Assembly: GCA_018303845.1 (NCBI GenBank) | Contig: JAGVXH010000002.1 | Span: 27,532-91,531 of the forward strand | DNA: 64,000 bases | Origin: Candidatus Pacearchaeota archaeon | GTDB taxonomy: Archaea > Nanobdellota > Nanobdellia > Pacearchaeales > GW2011-AR1 | Direction: 5' to 3' | Part shown: piece after piece, positions 15,358 to 57,330 of the stretch | Position numbering within the stretch: the first letter of the stretch is position 1 | Layout: each line of letters opens with the position of its first letter | Program-made: the position numbers and the translations under genes | Notes under the pieces: generated by a model | Told to the model about the DNA's origin: nothing | The model's input: the letters and a program-made list of their open reading frames with translations, nothing else | The model's database searches: none

Positions 15358-15438
15358 GCCCACATCGCATATCGGTATTGCAGCGGATTGCTAATCCGCG
15401 CCCTCCGGGGCCGGCAGGTTCGACTCCTGCTGTGGGCG
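15358..15438 (+). tRNA. tRNA-Ser (anticodon GCU), type II with long variable arm
   Basis: Manual fold: acceptor GCCCACA/UGUGGGC, anticodon stem GCGGA/UCCGC with loop UUGCUAA, T-arm GCAGG-UUCGACU-CCUGC. CCA is not encoded. Confidence 0.75.
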
Positions 15439-15508
15439 TTCATTATCGAAACTGACGGCTTGACGGCTGGTTTAAAAAAAAATAAAGTTTTTCTTTAGGA
15501 ATCTTTGA

Positions 15509-15555
15509 TTCCGTGTCCGAGTGTCTCTGACACGAAGGCGACTCCTACCGTAGGC
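15509..15555 (+). repeat. tRNA-associated element: conserved motif TTCCGTGTCCGAGTGTCTCTGACACGAAGG fused to a 17-bp copy of the tRNA-Ser 3' end (from the T-loop)
   Basis: cgactcctaccgtaggc after the motif matches the tRNA-Ser 3' end cgactcctgctgtgggc, which lies 70 bp upstream. The same motif family is found at the tRNA-Leu and tRNA-Met loci. Confidence 0.55.
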
Positions 15556-15843
15556 AGTCTAACAAAAATGCAATGTAATTGTAAACAACATTGTCACCGA
15601 CGCTGTTTGTAATCCCTATAAGATTACAAGAAAAACTTATAACTATAAACACCATCTAATATCATTCGATTTATCAGCTTTGGCTTCGGTCAATTCAACC
15701 TAATCGAATGTTCGGCTTCGGTCGAATGGAAGAGAGGTGATGCATTAGAATCAATACTCTTCCATTTTACAATTACATTCAAAATAACAATATTTTCTCT
15801 TCTTCACCTAAATCCTTATAAACAAAATAGAATATCTCGCCAT

Positions 15844-33047: not shown

Positions 33048-33941
33048 CTAACCCTTATCTCCCCCAGCCAACCGCGCCCTCAAGACCGGCAACTCCCCAT
33101 TAATCTCAGTCAATCTCTCACCATACTTCTTCATCCTAATATCATAAACTAACCCAGAAAGACTTCTCTTCTTAAACCGCTCAACCTGAACCTTCCTAAT
33201 CAAATCCTTCAAAACAGTACGCTCTGTCTCCATCTTCAAAATCTTATTCTTCAAGATTCTTTTCACAATATTCTTTCTAAGAAAAAATACCATAAAACCA
33301 ACTAAAACAAAACCAACTAAAACAAAAATCCAATGCTCCTGAAAAAAATTTTTAGCCCCACGTTGAACCCCCGCAAAAACAGTTCTATCAGCCCTATCTT
33401 TTTCAACACTAACTCGATATACTTTAATCAAATCTTCAGTCTCAGAAAATCTCTCCTCATAAAAAGCAGCCTTAGCATCTTCCAATATCTGAACATTTCC
33501 AGGAGAAACAATTCCAGGGAGGGGCTCTTCTATAATAATCTTATCCCACAATAAAAACGCTAAATCCCGACGAGCAACAATATCATAATAATAAACCATC
33601 ACGTCATCATACTCAAGATTTTGCCACTTAATCAACCTCAAAGCCTCAGTCGCTTCAGCCTTATCCTCACGAGAAAGACTACCATTCCTCAAAATTTCGG
33701 CATAACTAACCTGCTCAAAAACCCGATTCATCTCTAGTAAAGAATCTTCAACATAAGAAACAGAAAAATTATGCGCCTTCATTTCCGAAATAATATCATC
33801 AACATTTTCAAAAGCCACCATCACAGAATCCAAAGTAATATTTTCTTCTTTTTCCAAAATATCACCAGTCACCAAATTCATAACAATAAATAAATAAATA
33901 AATAGAATAGGCACACCAAAAACTTTAATTTTATTTTTCAT
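33048..33941 (-). CDS. Hypothetical membrane protein
   Basis: There is an N-terminal TM, a soluble domain and a C-terminal TM. The internal start MKNKIKVF avoids a long overlap with the upstream giant gene. Confidence 0.4.
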   Translation of the reverse strand: MKNKIKVFGVPILFIYLFIVMNLVTGDILEKEENITLDSVMVAFENVDDIISEMKAHNFSVSYVEDSLLEMNRVFEQVSYAEILRNGSLSREDKAEATEALRLIKWQNLEYDDVMVYYYDIVARRDLAFLLWDKIIIEEPLPGIVSPGNVQILEDAKAAFYEERFSETEDLIKVYRVSVEKDRADRTVFAGVQRGAKNFFQEHWIFVLVGFVLVGFMVFFLRKNIVKRILKNKILKMETERTVLKDLIRKVQVERFKKRSLSGLVYDIRMKKYGERLTEINGELPVLRARLAGGDKG

Positions 33942-36900
33942 TTTTCCCGCCCTTAATTTTAATCCACTTCCCATGAACATTCCTACCCAAAAAGCCCTTC
34001 CGTCCAACAAAAACTTTCTTAGCAAAACCCTTATCTATAATCTTGCTTTCCCCCTTATCCTCCTTATTCCCCGACGCCACAGACTTAGAAGAAATCTTGT
34101 TCACCCTCTCCTTCATCAGCAACACCGTCATCCTTTCTCCTTCAATCTCGGCCAACCTCTCATTCAAAATCCTAAACTGCAACTCATAACTATCCGTACC
34201 AATCTTCTTATTCTTATAATAATCATTCTGCAATTTCTTAACTTCCGCTTCCGCCTGAATCCTTTCACTATCAAGTTCAGAAATAATCTCCCTAGGCTTC
34301 AATATTCCAATTCTCTGATTCCTCAAAGTCAATCGAACTCCCCTTAAATTCGCCAACCTTTTCTCGTACTGATTCATAATCCGATGATATTCTCCAGAAG
34401 AAATCACACCCGTAAAATATTGTTGCTGAGACGCAGTCATTAATTTCCTAATATTCTCCTCTTCCCTATTAATATCAATAATCCTAGAACTCGCGACGCT
34501 CTTCTGATATTTACGATACCCAAAAATTCCACCCAAGAAAATAAAAAAGACACCCAAGAAAATAAACGGCCAATACAAAAATAAAAACAAAGTAAAATTT
34601 CCCTTTCGATTAAACAACAACAAATTCTGAGCCTCTTTTATTCTCTCATTAGCCAAAGCGTAATCTCCCCTTTCAAAAGCAACCTTAGCTAAATTCAAAA
34701 TATCCTCAACAGACTTATCGCCAAAAATAGCCCAACCAGTAAATATAGAATTCATATTGGCCCGAATACTATCATCAGCATAAGCATCCTTTACAGCGTT
34801 TCCAGTAATTACACCCATCTTCACCGGGTTCCTAAGCGATTCAAAAACTCCATCAATCAAACCTTGAGTTTCAAAAGCCAAATCTCTCAAATCCAAAATA
34901 CTTTCACTTAATTCCAATGCCTCCGCATTTTTTCTTTCTCCCAATTTCAACTTAGCCTTAGCAAAAAAATCCTCAACCTGAATCGTATTAAAACCCGCAA
35001 GCTTCATCTCAAGAATAGCCTTCTCCGCCGCTAGCAAAGAAAGACTCGTATCTTCAAAACTAGCCTCCTGAATAATCAACAAAATATTCTGAGTCTCTCT
35101 ATAACTTCTAGCAGCACCACCCACAACCAATTGACCACTAATCACCGCAACCAAAGTATGTTCCTCCATTACCTCCTTATATGCCGGAACCCGAACATTA
35201 ATATTAAACTTCCCAGATTCTCTATAGCCTATCGGGCCAACAACCAAAGGAGAAATTTTAATATACTTAGACATAAAACCATTCAAACTCAAAGTCAAAT
35301 TTTCCAAAGTAGAATTAATATATTTATTATCCACAGTTATCTCAAAACTATCTTCCCCCCCACGAACAATTTCAATAACTTTAGAATACACAACGGATTC
35401 TCCACTTGCCCCACCCCCGCCGCCTCCACTTCCGCCTCCACCAGTGATAGAAACCACAGTCGAGGCCACAATCGTCCCAGCGCCAATAGTAACCGCCTTA
35501 CTAGCATTAGCGGAATCAGCATTACTAGAATTAGCTACAGCAACAATAGAAACAGAGCTGTCCGTAGCCGACGAAGAAACAGAAACAACCAAACTATTTG
35601 AACCACTTCCGCCAATAGGCAAAGCCCCAAGACTTCTCGTCAAACTTCCACTACTAACACTAAACACCGAAGGCAAAGTCCAACTTAAATAAACATCCGT
35701 CGCATCCGCAGTACCAAGATTAGTAACCGTCGCAACCAAATTCACACTAGAATCCCCAGCCGTCACGCTCCCACTATAAGTACCAATATCAACAACCAAA
35801 TAAGGTCCAACAGCCGTCTGAAGATTGAGTCGCCTCTCAAAAATTTCCACTCCAGCCGCAGAAACAACAGTCACATTATAACTATACAAACCAGAAATCA
35901 AACCAGTAGTATTCACATCAATAGTTATATTTGCAAAACTCCCAGAACCGACAGAATAATTTACACTTAAATTTCCAGAATAATTTACACTCAATCGAGA
36001 ACCAATAGAAGAAGAACTAAGGCTAACATTAAAATTCAAATCTACATCTCCAGTATTATTTAAAATAACATTTCCTAAAGAATTGTTAGAAGCCCTATCA
36101 GCATAAACCAAAGAAACAATAGAACCAATCACAGCACTAACATTATGAGAAGTATCATTCCCAACAACAATCACAGTATTTGCAGAAATATTTCTATTAC
36201 CAGCAAAATCCGTAGCATTAATCTTAAACGTCCAGTTATCTGCCTCAGGAATAAAAGAACCGTTGTAAACAATCACCGAAGACGAACCTACAACCAAATC
36301 AGAATTATTATTCATACTAACAAAACTCCAATTCGTCTCCGTAGAATTCTTGTACATCAAAACAACCGAAGAAATATTATAATCTTCCGTAATACTAGAA
36401 TTCACATTCACAACAACAACAGGGTCCAAGCCATCCGTTGAGTTAGGAAAATAAGTTATATTATTAATAACAGGGGCAGTGTCATCAAAAATAACAACAT
36501 CATCAATACTACTATCATTAACTCTCCCAGCTAAATCATAAACATAAAGCCTAGCACTAAAACCTGGCGGAGAATGATTTCCAGAACCAATTGTATAACT
36601 AGTGGAATTCAAAGTCCCACTCAAATCAATATCAGAACTATTTACCCAAGTCCCACTAGCATTATAACTAACAATAACATAATCCAATCCAACAGCATCA
36701 CTAACATTCACAACACAAACAACATTAACAGAATCATTCGAATCACTGCATGAAAAATTATTCACAGCCGGTACAGTCAAATCGACATAAACAATCACCG
36801 AAGAATTCCCCTGATTACCAGAACTATCATTTGCATAAAATATTACATTATGCTGCCCCTCAACAAAATTAACGGTAGCATTCCAAGAGGTAGAAGAAGT

Positions 36901-39900
36901 ATTCCCCAAATTAGTAAGCGCACCAGAGTTATTCCTATATCCTGCCCAAATAACATTCTCACTCATAGTCGCATTCAAAAGAACACTCCCGTCCAAATCA
37001 TAAGAATTATTAGAAGGACTCCAAACAGTTATCACGGGGGCAGTACTATCCGCAGGAACAGCATCAACAGTAAACGAAACAGAGCTCACTCCGATATTCC
37101 CAGAAGAGTCCACAGCATAAAAAATAACAGTCTTGCTCTCGTCCGCTCCGGTCGCAACAACGCTATTCCAAGCAGATCCAGAACCAGACAAACTAACATT
37201 AGTAGCCCCACCATCCAAAGAATAATTCGCAGCAGTAGCATTCTCATTTAAACTAATACTAAATAAAATATTCGCAGTACCATAAGTCTGATTCAATGGA
37301 CTATTAATACTAACAACCGGAGCAGTCACATCATTAACCGTAAAAGTTATGGAACTAGAATTAGAATTTCCAGCAACATCACTAGAATAGAAATTACAAA
37401 CATATCCACCCTTAGCAACGCTACTCATCGTATAGTTCATCCATCCAGTTCCAGTCAAACTAATTGTATGATTCACAAAACTTCCCGTAACATTCTCCCC
37501 AATCTTAACATTAGTCAAACCAAAAGCATCCGCGACATAAGCACTACAAACCACATTCTGACTTTCATTCGCAGGATTCGGAGTTGCACCAACATTCGTA
37601 TAAACAGGAGAAACGCCATCAACATAAAACACAATCGTCTTACTTCCCTGATTACTCGAAGTATCATTAGCATAAACAACCAAAGTATTAGTAGATTCAT
37701 CACTCAAAGTAAGCATAGCATTCCAATCAACCATAGTCGTATTTGTCAAAGCAACAACAGAAGAGCCATTCAAAGTATACCCAGCCCAAGTCAAATTTTC
37801 ATTAGCAGTCACATTCAAAATAAGACTAGTCGAAGTGTAATAAGTCGCATTAGAAATCGTATCTATCGTTATCACCGGAGGAACAGTATCGGGGGCAGCA
37901 GTATTAACAGAAAAATAAATCACCGAAGAAACTCCAATATTCCCAGAAGAATCATTAGAATAAAACACAATATTATATGCCCCATCTGATAAATTAGTCA
38001 ATGTACTATTCCATGCCACAAGAGAAGTATTTCCCATACTAACATTCGCAGACCCATTCAAAGAATACCATGCCAAACTAGCATTCTCAGAAACACTAAT
38101 CGAAGCAGAAACATTAGCAACATTATACGTAAGATTACTAGGACTATTAACCGTTATTACCGGAACAGTCACATCATTAACATTAAAATTAACAGAACTA
38201 ACATTAGCGTTCCCGGCAAGATCACTAGCATAAAATTTGCAAGTATACCCACCAAAAGTTCCAAGCTGTGCACCAGAAATCAAATAACTAGCTTCACCAC
38301 TAATTCCAGAAAAAGAAATACTATGATTCTCAAAAGTCCCACTACTATTCTCCCCGATTATAACACCAGTTATATTATACGTATCAGTCCAACTAATAGA
38401 ACAATTAACATCCTGCGAAACATTAGCAGGACTAGGGAAAGCCTGAGCCAAACTATATCTCGGAGCAAGACTATCAGCATAAAACACCGAAGTCTTATTG
38501 TTCAAATTATTAGAAGTGTCATTAGCATAAACAACTAATGTATACGTAGTCTCCTGCGTCAAACTAGTCAAAGTAATATTCCAACTCCGAAGACTACTAT
38601 TCCCCAAATCCGAAACAGAACCACCATTCAAAGAATATCCAGCCCAACGCAAATCTTCATCCGCGGTAATATTAATCAAAGTATTCGCAGGATTCTTATA
38701 ACTTAGATTAGCAGGAGAAACAATCGTAATAGAAGGAGGCGTTGTATCAACCGGAGTCGTATCAATCACAAAAGAATTCCCAGTCAAAGTCCCAATATTC
38801 CCATAGCTATCATTCGCCCAAAAAGTCAAAGAATAAGTCCCATCCGCAATACTCGAATTTGTATGAGTATAACTAAGCAAAGTAGTATTCGCCATAGAAA
38901 CATTAGTCGCCCCACCATTCAAAGAATACCAAGCACGAGATAAAGCCTCGCTAACAGAAACACTAATCGTAACAGAATCCTGAGTTATCGTAGAACCATT
39001 AGTCGGAGAAACCAAAGTAATAATCGGAGCTGTATAATCAGTCGTATAGCTCCCGGTCAAACTATTGTTAGTTGCCGCTTCTCCAAGCTGATCAAAAACA
39101 TAAGCATACCAAGTATGAGTAGAAGAATCTAGTTCCGAAACAAGAACACAAGACAAATTAGCGCCACCAGAATCGCTACAATATTCACCCCCAAAACATC
39201 CACTTGAATTCGCCCCAGAAGAATTACAGACAAAAAGAGAAATCAATTGACTAGCATCAGAATCATAAGACACACTAGAAATATTAACGGCAACTCCACC
39301 TTTAATAATCGTAGCATTATCACTAGCACTCATAAAAGTAGGAAGTTGATTTATATTAATCGTTTTATTTTGAACCTCCTGAATGTTACCTGCATCATCA
39401 CTTGAATTATATCTCAAATAATTTATCCCACGGTTTACAGAAGTAAAAATAATTTGCCCACCATTATCAACACTAACCGAAGGCACACAAGTTCCAACAG
39501 TATCAGTACAATATAGAGTAGTAGGATCCGAATCTACATTATCTGCTTCCGTAATCGTAACAGTATAATTTGGAGCTTGAATAGTAGAAACCGAATTATC
39601 CGAAGTTGTTGGAGCAGTATAATCCAAAAAAAACTGCACATCTAAATTTTGACTAGAATTTTGTCCATTAGTATAATTATCTTGACAAGAAACATACCGC
39701 GCATAAAATCCCTGAGAAGCTACATTATTCACAGAACAATTCGCCCGTATTCCAGATACGGTGCAATCATTAGACATAGAAGAATAGGAAACATCACTTG
39801 AACTCCATCGACAGCTCATATTCGCCTCGCCAGAAACAACGATGTTCGTCACCCCATCATTTACTATATCAAAATAACTAGCAGCACTATCTCCAGCAAC

Positions 39901-40827
39901 ACTAACTATCGAAGTCGTTGGAGGAGTAGAATCTGTAATGTAAGTCACATTTGGAACAACCGAAGAATAAGCTGCCCCATCATAAACTCTACAATACTCT
40001 GTATAATTCGTGCTCGTAACAGCCGTAGCAAAAGTGCAAGACAAACTATATGGATAAGTCCCACTAGTAGTCCCACCAGTGCAATCTGTATTCGCAGAAG
40101 TAGGTAAATTAGTGGAATCACAAAATAATTGTAAAGTATTCAAGTCACTATCATTTACTCCATTACGCGTAGTATTCGCGTAGATAGTTATCGTATCCCC
40201 TCCCTTAATCACGGAATGACTTGCACTAATATTCGCAATCACAGGCTCAGCATTTGCAGAATAAGTCACATTAAAATACATCACATCCCAAGTCCCAGTC
40301 TCAGTCGTAGCAGGACCAGTTCCAATTCTTGACATTTCAGATTTCGCAAGCCCCCTAGTTCCACTCGCTCCAAAAAAATTCCCACAACTCCAAGTTTCCA
40401 GACTAGTTACATTTGAACAAGTTATAGAAGCCGGCTCACTAATTGCAGGACAAGTCGTAGTCACAACACTATAACTAGCTCCTCCATTAGCATCGACAGA
40501 AACATCACAATCCTGAGGCGTAGCAGTATTAGTTCTCCACCACTTGTAACAAACAAAAACCTGAGAAACCCCACCACAACTAAGCATGGAGCTATTTACC
40601 GACTGTATTCTTACACCCCCATAAGTACTTTTCAAATAAGTATGAGTCTCAAGAGAAGCATCGTCATTAATCAAAAAAGAACCCGTAGTATTATCACAAA
40701 CTCCCGCAAAACTTCCCTTAATTGCATTATCTTCCGCAGAACAAGTACTCACAACATTCGTGAACACAGCAGCACTCCCAAAAGTTCCAATAAAAACTCC
40801 AATCAACAAAACAAAAATTAACCTCAT
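33931..40827 (-). CDS. Giant (2298 aa) type-I membrane surface protein/adhesin with tandem Ig-like repeats, Gly-rich linker, C-terminal TM and cytoplasmic coiled-coil tail
   Basis: It has a signal peptide, more than 100 N-x-S/T sequons, and about 90-aa repeats (xP.IT..SP.N.SY...WAGYSLNG..) alternating with about 110-aa P.PAN.SQ.V.C modules in an A-A-B pattern repeated three times. There is a GGGGSGGGGGGASG linker, then TM FLFLYWPFIFLGVFFIFLGGIFGY, then a tail of about 180 aa. Confidence 0.8.
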   Translation of the reverse strand: MRLIFVLLIGVFIGTFGSAAVFTNVVSTCSAEDNAIKGSFAGVCDNTTGSFLINDDASLETHTYLKSTYGGVRIQSVNSSMLSCGGVSQVFVCYKWWRTNTATPQDCDVSVDANGGASYSVVTTTCPAISEPASITCSNVTSLETWSCGNFFGASGTRGLAKSEMSRIGTGPATTETGTWDVMYFNVTYSANAEPVIANISASHSVIKGGDTITIYANTTRNGVNDSDLNTLQLFCDSTNLPTSANTDCTGGTTSGTYPYSLSCTFATAVTSTNYTEYCRVYDGAAYSSVVPNVTYITDSTPPTTSIVSVAGDSAASYFDIVNDGVTNIVVSGEANMSCRWSSSDVSYSSMSNDCTVSGIRANCSVNNVASQGFYARYVSCQDNYTNGQNSSQNLDVQFFLDYTAPTTSDNSVSTIQAPNYTVTITEADNVDSDPTTLYCTDTVGTCVPSVSVDNGGQIIFTSVNRGINYLRYNSSDDAGNIQEVQNKTININQLPTFMSASDNATIIKGGVAVNISSVSYDSDASQLISLFVCNSSGANSSGCFGGEYCSDSGGANLSCVLVSELDSSTHTWYAYVFDQLGEAATNNSLTGSYTTDYTAPIITLVSPTNGSTITQDSVTISVSVSEALSRAWYSLNGGATNVSMANTTLLSYTHTNSSIADGTYSLTFWANDSYGNIGTLTGNSFVIDTTPVDTTPPSITIVSPANLSYKNPANTLINITADEDLRWAGYSLNGGSVSDLGNSSLRSWNITLTSLTQETTYTLVVYANDTSNNLNNKTSVFYADSLAPRYSLAQAFPSPANVSQDVNCSISWTDTYNITGVIIGENSSGTFENHSISFSGISGEASYLISGAQLGTFGGYTCKFYASDLAGNANVSSVNFNVNDVTVPVITVNSPSNLTYNVANVSASISVSENASLAWYSLNGSANVSMGNTSLVAWNSTLTNLSDGAYNIVFYSNDSSGNIGVSSVIYFSVNTAAPDTVPPVITIDTISNATYYTSTSLILNVTANENLTWAGYTLNGSSVVALTNTTMVDWNAMLTLSDESTNTLVVYANDTSSNQGSKTIVFYVDGVSPVYTNVGATPNPANESQNVVCSAYVADAFGLTNVKIGENVTGSFVNHTISLTGTGWMNYTMSSVAKGGYVCNFYSSDVAGNSNSSSITFTVNDVTAPVVSINSPLNQTYGTANILFSISLNENATAANYSLDGGATNVSLSGSGSAWNSVVATGADESKTVIFYAVDSSGNIGVSSVSFTVDAVPADSTAPVITVWSPSNNSYDLDGSVLLNATMSENVIWAGYRNNSGALTNLGNTSSTSWNATVNFVEGQHNVIFYANDSSGNQGNSSVIVYVDLTVPAVNNFSCSDSNDSVNVVCVVNVSDAVGLDYVIVSYNASGTWVNSSDIDLSGTLNSTSYTIGSGNHSPPGFSARLYVYDLAGRVNDSSIDDVVIFDDTAPVINNITYFPNSTDGLDPVVVVNVNSSITEDYNISSVVLMYKNSTETNWSFVSMNNNSDLVVGSSSVIVYNGSFIPEADNWTFKINATDFAGNRNISANTVIVVGNDTSHNVSAVIGSIVSLVYADRASNNSLGNVILNNTGDVDLNFNVSLSSSSIGSRLSVNYSGNLSVNYSVGSGSFANITIDVNTTGLISGLYSYNVTVVSAAGVEIFERRLNLQTAVGPYLVVDIGTYSGSVTAGDSSVNLVATVTNLGTADATDVYLSWTLPSVFSVSSGSLTRSLGALPIGGSGSNSLVVSVSSSATDSSVSIVAVANSSNADSANASKAVTIGAGTIVASTVVSITGGGGSGGGGGGASGESVVYSKVIEIVRGGEDSFEITVDNKYINSTLENLTLSLNGFMSKYIKISPLVVGPIGYRESGKFNINVRVPAYKEVMEEHTLVAVISGQLVVGGAARSYRETQNILLIIQEASFEDTSLSLLAAEKAILEMKLAGFNTIQVEDFFAKAKLKLGERKNAEALELSESILDLRDLAFETQGLIDGVFESLRNPVKMGVITGNAVKDAYADDSIRANMNSIFTGWAIFGDKSVEDILNLAKVAFERGDYALANERIKEAQNLLLFNRKGNFTLFLFLYWPFIFLGVFFIFLGGIFGYRKYQKSVASSRIIDINREEENIRKLMTASQQQYFTGVISSGEYHRIMNQYEKRLANLRGVRLTLRNQRIGILKPREIISELDSERIQAEAEVKKLQNDYYKNKKIGTDSYELQFRILNERLAEIEGERMTVLLMKERVNKISSKSVASGNKEDKGESKIIDKGFAKKVFVGRKGFLGRNVHGKWIKIKGGKNEK

Positions 40828-54227: not shown

Positions 54228-54750
54228 CTAAAACCAAAATATTATTCATACCGCGCCTCTTCCTTTCAACTAAACCCTTAGCTTCCAACTTATCAGTAAT
54301 CCGCGTCATCTTGACCTTCCCGCATCCAAGCTCATCCATAATACTCTTCTGGAAAAAAGCCCCTTTCTCACGCTGCAAAATCCCAACAACCCTCTTCTCC
54401 ACAGAATCAAGCCCACTCAAATCAAGCTTCTTCTTCAAAACTTTCTCCTTGACTTTCTTAACAACAATCCTCTCATTTTCCCTAGAAAAAACAAAAAACA
54501 CCCCAATCAAAAAAACCAACCCCGCAATAATCAAACTAAGTCCCGTCTGAATTCGAATCGTATCGTACATAGTACAACTCGCCCCATGGTCACACCCTTC
54601 GTCCATAATATCCTTCAACCCAAAATTAAATAACAATATAATTGCGACTATTAACACCGAAATCCCGACTATCAAAAACCCGACATTTTTATTCTTCATA
54701 ACAACAAAAGTCATCCAATCTATAAAAACATACCTAAACACCGTTAACAA
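54220..54750 (-). CDS. Membrane-anchored winged-HTH transcriptional regulator (paralog of 29774..30187)
   Basis: There are N-terminal TMs, a CDHGASC motif, and a C-terminal wHTH RVVGILQREKGAFFQKSIMDELGCGKVKMTRITDKLEAKGLV. Confidence 0.45.
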   Translation of the reverse strand: MLTVFRYVFIDWMTFVVMKNKNVGFLIVGISVLIVAIILLFNFGLKDIMDEGCDHGASCTMYDTIRIQTGLSLIIAGLVFLIGVFFVFSRENERIVVKKVKEKVLKKKLDLSGLDSVEKRVVGILQREKGAFFQKSIMDELGCGKVKMTRITDKLEAKGLVERKRRGMNNILVLVR

Positions 54751-54786
54751 TAAAACTTATAACCCATATAAATATCCAAAATACAT

Positions 54787-54869
54787 GTGGGGATGCCGGA
54801 GTGGCCAAACGGGCTGGCTTTAAGCGCCAGTAGCATCTGCTTACGGGGGTTCGAATCCTCCTCCCCACA
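54787..54869 (+). tRNA. tRNA-Leu (anticodon UAA), type II
   Basis: Manual fold: acceptor GUGGGGA/UCCCCAC, anticodon stem CUGGC/GCCAG with loop UUUAAGC, long variable arm, T-arm GGGGG-UUCGAAU-CCUCC. Confidence 0.8.
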
Positions 54870-54990
54870 TTTATACAATTCAATTTATTGAATTGTATTT
54901 ATTTTTGGAAGACGATTCTAATGCTCGAACTTTACGGGGGTTTGCGAAAAATTACGAAGTAACTTTTTCGCAGAAAAATTCAAAGAATTT

Positions 54991-55040
54991 TTCGTGTCCG
55001 AGTGTTCTTCATAACACGAAGGCGAATCCTCCTCTCTACA
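54991..55040 (+). repeat. tRNA-associated element: motif TTCGTGTCCGAGTGTTCTTCATAACACGAAGG fused to an 18-bp copy of the tRNA-Leu 3' end
   Basis: cgaatcctcctctctaca matches the tRNA-Leu 3' end cgaatcctcctccccaca, which lies 120 bp upstream. Two hairpins sit in the spacer. Confidence 0.55.
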
Positions 55041-55307
55041 TTAAAAATATTTTTCTAAAACCTTATTCATCTCGTCTGCAAAAGTTGTGTCACAGCAGTT
55101 CCTACAAATAAAATCAATCAAAGCGATATACCCCAAAAGGAAAATAAGCCCAAACAATATTGCCATAACCATCCTCAAGCTTCCCGTAACCTGTAATAAA
55201 ATTTCTCCAGCTAAAACCTTCTCCATAGTAGGATATCCGAATATCAAGGACCCCACTCCGTAAAAAAATTCTCCTACAGAAATACCTACACCTTTGATAT
55301 CTGCCAT
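55041..55307 (-). CDS. Hypothetical small membrane protein (internal start MADIKG)
   Basis: This is ORF-based only. The listed longer ORF extends into the repeat region. Confidence 0.25.
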   Translation of the reverse strand: MADIKGVGISVGEFFYGVGSLIFGYPTMEKVLAGEILLQVTGSLRMVMAILFGLIFLLGYIALIDFICRNCCDTTFADEMNKVLEKYF

Positions 55308-55349
55308 AAAACAAAAATGAATCTCCACTTTATATATTAGAGGTATCAA

Positions 55350-55580
55350 GATTAGATAGCGGGCGAACAATTTGCATTTGAAAAAGAATATTTTTCTTCG
55401 AAAAATTTTTTCAAAAGCAAATTGCAAGTAGGGATTTCAAATCCTCGTCAACGCATAGCGGGCGAAAACTTCGCGCGAATTTTGTCCTAGAACAAAAATT
55501 AGACAAAATTTTAGTGCAAAGTTTGAGTAGGGATTTTTCAAATCTCTCCCTGCCATAGCGGGGGCAGGATGCGGACAAAA
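55350..55580. repeat. Degenerate roughly 100-bp direct repeats carrying GTAGGGATTT(T)CAAATC...ATAGCGGG(C/G)G cores (tRNA-Met 3'-end-like)
   Basis: Cores occur at 55355, 55453 and 55553. The last copy, tagcggggcaggat, matches the plus-strand image of the tRNA-Met acceptor/T-arm tagcggggacaggat. Copies are irregularly spaced. Confidence 0.4.
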
Positions 55581-55641
55581 AGTCTAGAAGGCGGCTATCT
55601 TATCTACTACTGGAAAAATAAACTATACCTGTCTGTCCAAA

Positions 55642-56391
55642 TTAAGGACAATCAATTATCTTGCTCTGGCCGTATTTATGATCAGAACTTCCTGAATTTA
55701 TATTAGGTTTTATCTCTCCAGCTTCATAAGATCCAGGCAAATCAACAGAATCCTCCGCCACCCAACTGGTGAAGGAAACTTCTCCTTGCATTCTCTGACA
55801 ATAATAATTTTCAGGATACATATTCTTAGTCACCATTGTCCAATCACCGCAATCAGTTATATATCCCAAAGGCCGTTGCCCGGAACCATCCAAATAAAAT
55901 CTTGTTCCCACAGGGCCCTGTGCTTTTCCAGAAGAAACAGCATTATATTTAGTAAGATAACCGTTATTTCCAGCAATTGTACACACCGCAGAATCAATTG
56001 TGACTTCAGTCGTAACTATATCTGGAGCCGCTGTAATCTCTCCTCCAGAATCTCCTACATCAATCTTTATCGGATCAGAAGTGGTCATCTCACACTGGCC
56101 TGCAATACAACACTTTTGACTTTTAGGTATGCAAAACATACCACACATCTTTTTATCATCGCTACATGAGTTACAAATTGTATTCTCAGTCACAGATTCA
56201 AGACAATAACTTCCTCCAGAACTGCACCGGGCATTAGTTGGAATACACCCATCATCGCATCTCTGCAATCCTGCAGGGCAAATAGATTTAACGTTAGAAT
56301 CCGACATATAGCTAAAGATCATTATACTCGCAAGAATCAGAACAACCCCTCCAATAACAAAAGGCCACTTAATACCTACCATAGAATACAC
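55642..56391 (-). CDS. Secreted Cys-rich protein (signal/TM anchor plus Cys-knot-like N-terminal region)
   Basis: There is an N-terminal hydrophobic segment and 20 Cys. No family recognised. Confidence 0.4.
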   Translation of the reverse strand: MYSMVGIKWPFVIGGVVLILASIMIFSYMSDSNVKSICPAGLQRCDDGCIPTNARCSSGGSYCLESVTENTICNSCSDDKKMCGMFCIPKSQKCCIAGQCEMTTSDPIKIDVGDSGGEITAAPDIVTTEVTIDSAVCTIAGNNGYLTKYNAVSSGKAQGPVGTRFYLDGSGQRPLGYITDCGDWTMVTKNMYPENYYCQRMQGEVSFTSWVAEDSVDLPGSYEAGEIKPNINSGSSDHKYGQSKIIDCP

Positions 56392-56476
56392 AAATCAAAA
56401 TATTATTTAAATCTTATCAATCAAGGTTCAAATCTGACTCTATCAAAAAATGAGATTTTACCGACGATAAAAAAAA

Positions 56477-56552
56477 TAGCGGGGACAGGATTTGAACCAT
56501 GTGACCTCGAGGTTATGGGCCTCGCGAGCTGACCAGACTGCTCCACCCCGCT
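56477..56552 (-). tRNA. tRNA-Met (anticodon CAU), probably initiator-type (A1:U72); T-stem carries a one-nucleotide bulge
   Basis: Manual fold: acceptor AGCGGGG/CCCCGCU, D-stem GAGC/GCUC, anticodon stem CGAGG/CCUCG with loop CCCAUAA. The T-arm ACAUGG-UUCAAAU-CCUGU needs a U bulge. A TTTATAA box lies about 25 nt upstream. Confidence 0.6.
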
Positions 56553-56653
56553 ACACAATTAAACGCCTAAAACGTGTTATAAATCTTTCTTTAAGCAAAA
56601 ACAAGGGGACTGGATTAAAAGTTCTTTATGAACTTTTAGAAATTCAAGAGAAT

Positions 56654-56779
56654 TTCGTGTCCGAGCTTCTTTGAAGCGAAGGTTGAACTATTGTGACCTC
56701 GAGGTTATGGGAATCGCTGGTCGGGACAGACTGCTCCATCCCGCTACACAATTAAACATCTAAAACGTGTTATAAATCG
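56654..56779 (-). repeat. tRNA-associated element: motif (TTCGTGTCCGAGCTTCTTTGAAGCGAAGG on plus) fused to a copy of the tRNA-Met 5' two-thirds plus its promoter
   Basis: 56683-56746 is a diverged copy of tRNA-Met from acceptor 5' end to T-loop. 56747-56779 copies the 33-bp promoter region cacaattaaac..ctaaaacgtgttataaatc found at 56553-56585. Confidence 0.55.
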
Positions 56780-56799
56780 TTATTATAAAAAAGTCGAAC

Positions 56800-57330
56800 T
56801 CAATAACTCAAAAAAGAAACATCAAGCTTATTCATTCTCAAATAAAATTCATAATCCGGAAAACCTTTCTTGGACTCTATAAACATTTTCCCAAGTCCTT
56901 CCCAAAAAGCAAACCATCCGGCCGGCTCAGAAATTATAAAAAATAAATCAATCAAAAAACTATCCGAACTAAATCTATATGCAAAAGTAGCGACAATCAT
57001 AATAATCGTTCCAAGAAAAACCCAAAATAAACCTTCAACCCAAATCTTCTTTATTCCTTTTTTTTGAATCACAAAATTTTTATAAAAATGTTCTTTAAGT
57101 CTACGCTTAATCCTTAATTCGTCCGGCTTTTTACGAAACTTTCTAGGGACAAGAAGACGAAGTTCAATCTTCTCAGAATCTTTCTCTCTAGCCGCCCGCC
57201 TGCATTCTAACAAAAAATCCTCAGACAAAGCACGATCAGAATAAGGCCTAGGATCAAAATCAGAAAATAAATCATTATAAGAATCTAAAATCAAACTGAC
57301 ATTACCTTCTCTTAAATTAACTTTTCCCAT
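56800..57330 (-). CDS. Hypothetical membrane protein
   Basis: There is a soluble N-terminal domain and two C-terminal TM helices. Confidence 0.35.
   Translation of the reverse strand: MGKVNLREGNVSLILDSYNDLFSDFDPRPYSDRALSEDFLLECRRAAREKDSEKIELRLLVPRKFRKKPDELRIKRRLKEHFYKNFVIQKKGIKKIWVEGLFWVFLGTIIMIVATFAYRFSSDSFLIDLFFIISEPAGWFAFWEGLGKMFIESKKGFPDYEFYLRMNKLDVSFLSY

Follow-up and report, generated by a model that had tools for sequence, protein, structure and literature searches.

A three-hairpin element in the loops of partial tRNA gene copies of a Pacearchaeota archaeon: a candidate micro-scale mobile unit

The DNA analyzed here comprises 64,000 nucleotides (nt) from Candidatus Pacearchaeota archaeon (GenBank assembly GCA_018303845.1, contig JAGVXH010000002.1, positions 27,532 to 91,531 of the forward strand) and is referred to as the window. 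It contains a tRNA-Met gene next to a second, interrupted copy of the same gene, and the interruption is a compact module of three hairpins, termed element E, which recurs at two further tRNA genes of the window and in other archaeal sequences. With about even confidence, and judged from sequence, the locus can be read as a tRNA-Met gene that has received an insertion of a small mobile unit, non-autonomous and targeted to hairpin loops. E copies share a defined anatomy with covarying stems, occupy a precise target position, follow a rule that ties them to one chromosome strand, are polymorphic in the population and are decaying at some sites. tRNA genes are classic landing sites for mobile DNA, and the elements known to us to use them are kilobase-sized and equipped with integrases. 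The E family consists of units of about 70 nt that sit with single-nucleotide precision inside tRNA hairpin loops, obey the chromosome-strand rule and are accompanied by a gene rebuilt on one side. No description of E was found in the literature on T-loop-targeting elements, on tRNA-fragment arrays in DPANN archaea or under the motif string, and the family found next to tRNA genes of Pacearchaeota-like archaea is apparently undescribed.

Copies of E were located with R1, a covariance model built from six of them. The Met locus is composed as follows:

56477..56552, minus strand: intact tRNA-Met(CAT), the functional copy (Rfam RF00005, 56.3 bits; ARAGORN 56476-56553, minus strand)
56553..56600, minus strand: upstream region and promoter of the intact tRNA-Met (TATA box TTTATAA at 56577-56583, about -28)
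56597..56615, minus strand: 3' remnant of the disrupted tRNA-Met copy (ATCCAGTCCCCTTG plus a T-run; 14 of 19 positions equal to the intact 3' end)
56616..56682, plus strand: element E, Met copy, 67 nt, antisense to the tRNA (R1 53.6 bits, E-value 1e-9; three-hairpin minimum free energy fold)
56683..56745, minus strand: disrupted tRNA-Met copy, positions 1-58, from the acceptor 5' strand to A58 of the T-loop (alignment; D-arm and anticodon stem decayed)
56746..56791, minus strand: promoter and upstream region of the disrupted copy (TATA box TTTATAA at 56770-56776; repeats and alignment)

The intact gene has the same sequence in two relatives considered below, the sister haplotype L195 and strain L200. 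A second promoter region with tRNA-Met positions 1-58 lies 193 nt upstream of it in the tRNA sense, and the repeat finder reports direct repeats D1 (58 nt, 91%) and D6 (26 nt, 92%) at spacings of 193 and 192 nt. The duplicated block measures 109 nt (56791-56683 versus 56600-56492) and includes the upstream region of the intact gene (56553..56600), which shows 100% identity to L195, a single-copy haplotype. The promoter copy of the disrupted tRNA-Met is intact in the window, and its region (56746..56791) is collinear with the L195 intergenic region proximal to the homologue of ORF176, the open reading frame (ORF) that adjoins the disrupted copy. The second promoter and 5' tRNA-Met copy announced in the original prediction are therefore real (ARAGORN, Rfam, repeats D1/D6 and the alignment agree), and the alignment displays the changed D-arm that it described, along with changes in the anticodon stem.

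The original prediction further held that the motif replaces the 3' side of the partial copy. At the disrupted T-loop, the minus strand indeed passes from tRNA sequence into CCTTCG CTTCAAAGAAG CTCGGACACGAA, but beyond the 67-nt insert it resumes with ATCCAGTCCCCTTGTTTTT, which matches the intact ATCCTGTCCCCGCTATTTT at 14 of 19 positions. This 3' remnant starts exactly at the interruption point, and when the flanks of the insert are joined, GTTCAA followed directly by ATCC is restored exactly; the site is therefore an insertion and not a replacement. Nor is the motif a junction sequence, as had been proposed: it forms the last 26 nt of a discrete module of 66-80 nt with tRNA sequence on both sides. 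The claim that the 5' part of the tRNA is duplicated holds for the 109-nt block, but together with the 3' remnant a whole gene unit is present twice, and the disrupted copy carries that entire unit, from promoter to T-run, split between T-loop positions 58 and 59. As to the intact gene itself, its T-stem (56492-56503) contains an extra T in the 5' strand (ACA-T-GG paired with CCTGT), and it combines an A1:U72 pair with just two G-C pairs at anticodon-stem positions 29-31, making it a candidate initiator, elongator or Ile2 tRNA.

E is built as T-hairpin 1-A, hairpin 2, GTGTCCGA, hairpin 3 and a terminal GAAGG, over 66-80 nt. At Met, hairpin 1 has 9 bp, hairpin 2 has 7 bp, and hairpin 3 is GCTTC/GAAGC. 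The motif CGTGTCCGAG occurs three times in the 64-kb window against 0.49 expected occurrences, always on the plus strand (15512, 54993 and 56656) and adjoining the genes for tRNA-Ser, tRNA-Leu and tRNA-Met, respectively; no motif or E copy lies beside tRNA-Thr, the fourth tRNA gene of the window. The structural covariance search suggested in the original prediction led to the same three loci: R1 recovers every known copy and detects exactly three in the window, at tRNA-Ser, -Leu and -Met, each less than 120 nt from the tRNA gene, and no match appears in about 20 kb of sequence without tRNA genes around the window start (some 9 kb of it beyond the window). The Leu and Ser loci contain the following features:

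54787..54869, plus strand: intact tRNA-Leu(TAA) (ARAGORN, Rfam)
54914..54942, plus strand: decayed tRNA-Leu piece from the anticodon loop to T55, left flank of E, ending CTTTACGGGGGTT (11 of 13 positions match GCTTACGGGGGTT)
54943..55022, plus strand: element E, Leu copy, 80 nt (R1 42.8 bits, E-value 2e-7; fold)
55023..55040, plus strand: tRNA-Leu 3' fragment from C56 (CGAATCCTCCTCTCTACA; repeats D2 and D5; 16 of 18 positions equal to the intact 3' end)
15358..15438, plus strand: intact tRNA-Ser(GCT) (ARAGORN, Rfam)
15473..15538, plus strand: element E, Ser copy, 66 nt, with a degenerate hairpin 1 (R1 77.6 bits, E-value 5e-15)
15539..15557, plus strand: decayed tRNA-Ser 3' fragment from C56 (CGACTCCTACCGTAGGCAG versus CGACTCCTGCTGTGGGCG)

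The decayed piece on the left flank of the Leu copy is conserved in the contigs L186 and L194. At Ser, the left flank GACGGCTGGTT offers a doubtful T-stem match (9 of 11 positions), and on the right side GAAGG is followed by the 3' part from C56. The Ser copy of E is 91% identical to L187a, a copy from another metagenome.

Insertion of E is accompanied by neither target duplication nor deletion, and the element has no terminal inverted repeats, its ends being T... and ...GAAGG. On the left, GTT directly precedes E in 13 of 17 copies and T in all 17, within 4-mers that vary (GGTT, CGTT, TGTT, GGAT, GCGT, GAGT and CGAT). On the right, forward copies continue with C56 and two inverted cases (Met and L189) with TTGAA. 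The junction was predicted to fall again in the T-loop, at the CGAAGG end of the motif; it does lie in the T-loop, but between positions 58 and 59 at Met as compared with 55 and 56 at Ser and Leu. Read on the E strand, these positions coincide, and T-loop inserts always enter the 7-nt loop after its second nucleotide. In 10 of 11 loci, the inverted Met and L189 copies included, E occupies the C-rich strand, and the eleventh locus is neutral. One family is thus present at Ser, Leu and Met and is inverted at Met, as predicted, but its orientation tracks the chromosome strand and is not free. Since tRNA-Met is encoded on the G-rich strand and E lies on the C-rich strand, E appears in opposite orientation there, antisense to the tRNA and with its breakpoint at 58/59 instead of 55/56, and consequently the orphaned piece consists of promoter plus 5' part and not of a 3' part. 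If the G-rich strand is the leading strand, the GTGTCCGA strand lies on the leading-strand template. As a general property of the window, the GC skew ranges from -0.05 to -0.56 in every 2-kb bin and is negative even under plus-strand genes, and the AT skew is positive throughout.

Outside the window, E copies were found in ten further contigs (L137, L184, L186, L187, L189-L192, L194 and L200) from at least six other archaeal sequence sets, with tRNA-Ser, -Leu, -Pro and -Gln as hosts. A stricter pattern on JGI metagenomes gave nine real loci, and a relaxed regular expression added copies inside those loci; the distribution of the family is the one seen by exact-pattern scans. A motif scan of GTDB species genomes returned mostly chance matches in GC-rich bacteria; among the matches listed, L137 alone was informative, with the order tRNA-Gln, about 100 nt, E and CGAATCCTCGCGGAG. 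Nearly all copies lie flush in T-loops of partial tRNA copies that adjoin an intact gene, one lies in a D-loop, and some form arrays. The forward anatomy reads intact tRNA, short spacer, cognate-like T-stem 5' strand ending in GTT, E, and the tRNA 3' part from C56. This 3' part agrees fully with the gene in six loci (L184a, L184b, L186, L187, L190 and L191b; L192 repeats L184) and diverged in four (window Ser, window Leu, L137 and L194). E-containing units measure 110-195 bp in all of about 15 cases. Behind the tRNA-Ser of L187, three tandem units follow each other with a period of 110 nt, each made up of 18 nt of 3' sequence that match the gene exactly, a spacer of 25 nt and an E variant of its own, and the distal unit is the most decayed. 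Simpler arrangements also exist: in L184b, E is plainly inserted into a nearly full-length pseudo-tRNA, whose joined flanks give CCCCGTT followed directly by CGATTCGGGG, and in L189 it is intergenic, inside a T-loop-like sequence upstream of rpl11. In L191 (5960-6560), a 5' copy of tRNA-Ser that bears a promoter has E in its D-loop, with a lone hairpin 1 after the element. The same L191 region also holds a short inverted E flanked by inverted copies of the tRNA 5' end.

The three hairpins are conserved in structure and not in sequence, whereas the single-stranded words GTGTCCGA and GAAGG do not vary even between distant genomes. With RNA and DNA parameters alike, ViennaRNA predicts the three hairpins in 14 of 16 copies. 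In an alignment of 17 distinct copies made with the model, 97.5% of the cells are paired, compared with 79.3% after shuffling and 40-61% when the partners are slid by 1-3 columns; 18 of 24 stem pairs have changed on both sides, and compensatory cells number 79 against 22.7 expected. Whole stems are exchanged in the raw sequences as well (for example, GTGTC/GACAC versus GCTTC/GAAGC). The stems contain 14 G.T pairs against five A.C pairs, an asymmetry which suggests that folding occurs on the GTGTCCGA strand. A search of Rfam 15 at gathering and permissive thresholds (E-value up to 10) matched the tRNA genes alone, with nothing overlapping E. Several known motifs were considered and rejected. 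The CCGA-hairpin 3-GAAGG segment is not a K-turn, as its internal loop is 2x3 (GA/GAA) in place of a 3-nt bulge with tandem GA pairs, and a hammerhead-like fold lacks both the CUGA box and an Rfam match. Mimicry of the T-stem by GAAGG fits the Leu copy, where four of five positions pair with the T-stem 3' strand, but not Ser copies with other T-stems, where at most three of five do. E variants cluster by tRNA type too incompletely for type-specific lineages to be claimed, although two copies from different genomes can, when they share a tRNA type, be more similar than two copies of one genome.

Relatives provide both filled and empty sites. An 87%-identical homologue of ORF176 is encoded on five short contigs from the same aquifer; homologues of ORF176 carry the names Pacearchaeota, Woesearchaeota or Nanoarchaeota. 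In two of them, L195 and L196, ARAGORN detects a single tRNA-Met, 54 nt after the ORF176 homologue. The BLAST alignments of L195-L197 skip E; no second tRNA-Met is present in L195, and R1 finds no copy in it. L195 is identical to the window from AAGAAAGATTTATAAC onward. By BLAST, a 91% block runs through the disrupted copy and ends at the E junction (56683), and a 98.7% block begins at 56600. Strain L200 (GCA_053534935.1, a 99% strain) has both the Met duplication and E. Its intact copy and the next 240 nt are identical to the window; its disrupted copy differs from that of the window at about 12 positions per 100 nt, and its Met E has lost two pairs of hairpin 3. The Met locus is therefore a gain/loss polymorphism. 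At Leu, L200 and L195 are without window positions 54871-55355 and carry instead a different, degenerate E 17 nt after tRNA-Leu; the distance from tRNA-Leu to an array of CCCGCTAT fragments is 485 nt in the window, including the E unit and a 66-amino-acid (aa) ORF, versus 113 nt in L200 (5976-6082), where the intervening sequence is entirely different although the strain is 98.6% identical. At tRNA-Pro, no units are present in L189 and two in its relative L190. The region between the tRNA genes at Leu has the appearance of a hot spot of replacement.

The favoured reading connects these observations as follows. The E core of 66-80 nt would enter the 5' side of a hairpin loop without target duplication and always with its own strand on the C-rich chromosome strand. 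An insertion into the sole functional T-loop would be lethal, and surviving copies would be those with a complete gene on one side and an orphan part on the other. The mobile unit would usually consist of E plus an adjoining replacement tRNA segment, probably excised from the next upstream site that ends in GTT, so that each insertion rebuilds the gene and leaves the former segment as an orphan; arrays could then grow by further insertions. At Met, the replacement segment would comprise the promoter and positions 1-58, and the original 5' part would survive as the decaying copy beside ORF176. Movement may involve an intermediate that is single-stranded and coupled to replication, on which an HUH/Y1-like transposase or a recombinase would act in trans. 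A unit of E plus tRNA segment would account for the arrays, the GTT left junctions and the haplotype break at the E junction, and the defined ends, the lack of inverted repeats and duplication, the conserved hairpins with their favoured strand, the strand rule, the decay and the filled and empty alleles argue for a non-autonomous element that moves as a single strand.

In style, E probably stands closest to miniatures of the IS200/IS605 family. These elements and their miniatures (PATEs), which move by 'peel and paste', share with E the lack of terminal inverted repeats and target duplication and the presence of subterminal hairpins with conserved words. They likewise have asymmetric ends and insert 3' of a short left-flank sequence, and their use of one active strand and their orientation bias linked to strand asymmetry may have counterparts in E. 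The right end of E (8-nt word, hairpin, 5-nt tail, cleavage) is similar to the right end of IS608. In contrast to IS200/IS605, E comes with no tnpA or tnpB seen in the window or the fetched loci, measures only 66-80 nt, has its left hairpin 1 nt from the end, recognizes a hairpin-loop position instead of a fixed tetranucleotide, and apparently carries a tRNA segment along. Targeting through structure has precedents, as IS1397 and ISKpn1 target palindrome loops in REP/BIME units and group IIC introns target terminator hairpins. As with E, the target is set by a stem-loop and not by sequence; unlike E, these elements are autonomous, kilobase-sized, moved by known enzymes and not specific for tRNA genes. 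Integron attC sites also keep their structure while their sequence varies, apparently fold on one strand and occur in arrayed units. An attC site, however, is one long imperfect palindrome with R/L boxes, served by IntI and associated with cassette ORFs; E has three separate hairpins and none of these attributes.

Several points weigh against this reading. Capture and restoration of the gene is a model, and it presupposes a founding event for each tRNA type. Hairpin 1 begins 1 nt from the left end and leaves no room for a left guide of the IS608 type, and the target 4-mer varies. No transposase or integrase domain was found by Pfam in about 50 window ORFs of at least 120 aa, a set that leaves out the 2298-aa ORF at 33931-40827 on the minus strand and ORFs below 120 aa, and none is evident in the ribosomal-protein neighbourhoods of other E loci; specifically, no Y1 (TnpA) transposase is present in the window or the fetched loci. 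Viral contigs of IMG/VR, scanned with several forms of the motif, gave no E copy and just chance matches in GC-rich phages, and no circular or excised form of E was seen. The copies of one genome are not each other's closest relatives, a pattern more in keeping with old insertions or exchange between genomes than with a recent burst. The covariation figures come from an alignment fitted to the covariance model and lean towards its structure, and the strand rule corresponds to about eight independent sites once orthologous loci are allowed for, with replication direction deduced from skew alone.

A more specific proposal, made tentatively and with a probability clearly below even, is that E units form a hitherto unrecognized class of self-restoring micro-transposons, in which a three-hairpin DNA module of about 70 nt targets tRNA hairpin loops, moves as a single strand during replication and carries the replacement tRNA segment (a 3' part, or promoter plus 5' part), so that an essential gene is not lost to the hit. 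Such a class would be the transposon answer to a problem that integrases solve with tRNA-bearing attP sites, and it would offer a living, DNA-level model of how tRNA genes gain loop inserts, introns and splits. If E is mobile as proposed, it would represent a new minimal route by which essential genes can be parasitized in DPANN archaea, whose genomes are very small, and would explain the tRNA-fragment clutter and tRNA mis-annotation in such metagenome-assembled genomes (MAGs). It would also open to test the old idea that disrupted, intron-bearing and split tRNA genes owe their origin to mobile DNA. Because the Rifle aquifer time series contains filled and empty haplotypes together, existing reads could serve to examine mobility directly.

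An explanation that we consider unlikely is that the loci are tiny integrase-dependent elements or the remnants (att scars) of larger ones, comparable to cis-mobilizable elements. Here, an attP site with a tRNA segment would recombine with the tRNA gene through a tyrosine recombinase supplied in trans, restoring the gene and leaving a direct repeat; E would correspond to a conserved P-arm adjoining the core, and tandem accretion would account for the arrays. The loci resemble tRNA-targeting integrative elements (tyrosine-integrase proviruses, plasmids and islands with partial tRNA repeats as attL/attR), since these also combine an intact tRNA with a partial copy bounded in the T-loop, supply a replacement tRNA segment from the element side, form arrays and make loci hypervariable between strains. 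An intact gene with a partial direct repeat from the T-loop is the classic signature of tRNA-targeting integrases, and in Thermococcaceae partial tRNA genes flank elements of 9-23 kb (PMC9897764). At the E loci, a direct repeat of the tRNA segment, with one copy completing a functional tRNA, spans 109 nt at Met and 18-26 nt or longer at Ser, Leu, Pro and Gln. These repeats reach about 8 nt or more past the tRNA 3' end in L187, L190 and L184a, the most decayed array unit is the distal one, and the near-palindromic T-loop (TTCGAA) could permit either orientation. Integrative elements, however, span kilobases and encode an integrase, and an integrated element of this usual kind between the repeats, as envisaged in the original prediction, does not exist: the whole unit has 110-195 bp, and no integrase lies nearby in the scanned window ORFs or the neighbourhoods of other loci. 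This size is too uniform across about 15 cases for random deletion remnants and too short for easy duplex circles. An attP arm would also have no reason to carry the cognate T-stem 5' strand and GTT found left of E. What sets E apart further is the three-hairpin module flush between the T-loop halves, the bare insertions in a pseudo-tRNA (L184b), a D-loop (L191a) and an intergenic site (L189), and an orientation that tracks the chromosome strand.

It is likewise unlikely that two unrelated steps produced the locus, namely a tandem duplication of tRNA-Met by slippage or unequal exchange and a later insertion of E alone into the spare copy, followed by decay. The association of E with partial copies would then reflect survivorship, with hits in functional T-loops purged. 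Taken by itself, Met is a clean tandem duplication of a whole unit plus a 67-nt insert, and the plain insertions in L184b and L189 show that E alone can be the inserted unit. Two rare events would nevertheless be needed at each of more than 10 loci and at three of the four tRNA genes of the window. The scenario leaves unexplained the arrays of identical 3' fragments alternating with different E variants, the placement of partial copies just 20-70 nt from the gene, and the coincidence of the haplotype break with the E junction.

Little credence is given to a host function, in which E, with or without the tRNA fragment, would be kept as a structured RNA or DNA signal; conceivable roles include a bidirectional terminator or insulator behind tRNA genes (through the T4-T6 tracts of hairpin 1), a small RNA whose 3' tail derives from a tRNA, or a decoy for att sites. 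Selection of this kind would suit the compensatory changes, the invariance of GTGTCCGA and GAAGG across distant genomes and the greater closeness that copies of the same tRNA type from different genomes can show over copies within a genome, and the GA/GAA internal loop that closes hairpin 3 may resemble a protein-binding motif. Presence and absence nevertheless differ between near-identical strains, copies are decaying (L200 Met, L187c and L137), and E is antisense to the promoter at Met. E also carries internal T5-T6 tracts, and such tracts would terminate archaeal transcription, here inside the element. No Rfam family matches, and tRNA-Thr has no E.

Very unlikely is a T-loop intron or a split or permuted tRNA, with E as a non-canonical archaeal intron, or as the leader or trailer of trans-spliced halves, that the splicing endonuclease removes. 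Archaeal non-canonical introns and split tRNA genes, exemplified by intron transposition in Thermoproteales and by Nanoarchaeum and Caldivirga, include short structured inserts in D- and T-loops that apparently spread among tRNA genes, and they share with E the idea of mobile DNA disrupting tRNA genes. E has an intron-like size and lies in tRNA loops, genes for RtcB and archease stand side by side (L203 4897-7188, about 5-8 kb before the window start), so that this genome possesses the ligation machinery of tRNA splicing, and the Met trailer, which is E in antisense, is the complement of the conserved words found at Ser and Leu. Unlike archaeal introns, E occurs in pseudogene hosts beside intact intron-less genes for the same tRNAs, in both orientations and in an intergenic copy. 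In minimum free energy folds of T-arm plus E, both junctions fall into a four-way multiloop with no bulge-helix-bulge. Most E-bearing copies have no 5' half or have broken stems, and removal of E yields no foldable tRNA (the anticodon stem and acceptor are broken at Met, and the Leu, Ser and Pro copies are without 5' halves). Trans-splicing between split halves was rejected, given the intact genes, the absent bulge-helix-bulge and the acceptor strands of Met and Leu/Ser, which could not pair. The chance of a collapsed or chimeric repeat in the assembly is next to nil: assemblies often fail at short repeats close to contig ends and the scaffold L062 starts inside tRNA-Leu, but window positions 54700-56850 are matched with 100% identity over 2.0-2.15 kb in an ENA MEGAHIT contig, a JGI contig and an ANAN16 scaffold, three independent assemblies (three assemblers/samples), and the fourth, NCBI MAG GCA_053534935.1 (strain L200), has the same Met architecture with private substitutions, so that the mis-assembly raised as a possible refutation in the original prediction does not apply. 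The RNase HII protein of the window has exact matches on many contigs.

A separate repeat array lies in the hypervariable region between the tRNA genes, about 900 nt downstream of tRNA-Met and past a Cys-rich 249-aa ORF:

55356..55570, minus strand: array of three tRNA-Met 3'-end fragments (repeat families D3 and D13, inverted repeat I6)

On the minus strand, ATCCTGCCCCCGCTAT is followed by two copies of CCCGCTAT, 99-100 nt apart, and the first fragment begins at the T-loop position where the E junction also falls. The 91-nt hairpin-rich units between the copies are unrelated to E and may represent a second arrayed family. At 55368-55424, the interior of a long hairpin with 18-bp arms is inverted in L200 and L195 (57 nt, 100% match), a flip-flop polymorphism. 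Finally, positions 1-520 of L194 show the order tRNA-Leu, E unit, tRNA-Met (same strand) and RNase HII, without the four genes that flank tRNA-Met in the window; gene order around tRNA-Met has therefore been rearranged between relatives.

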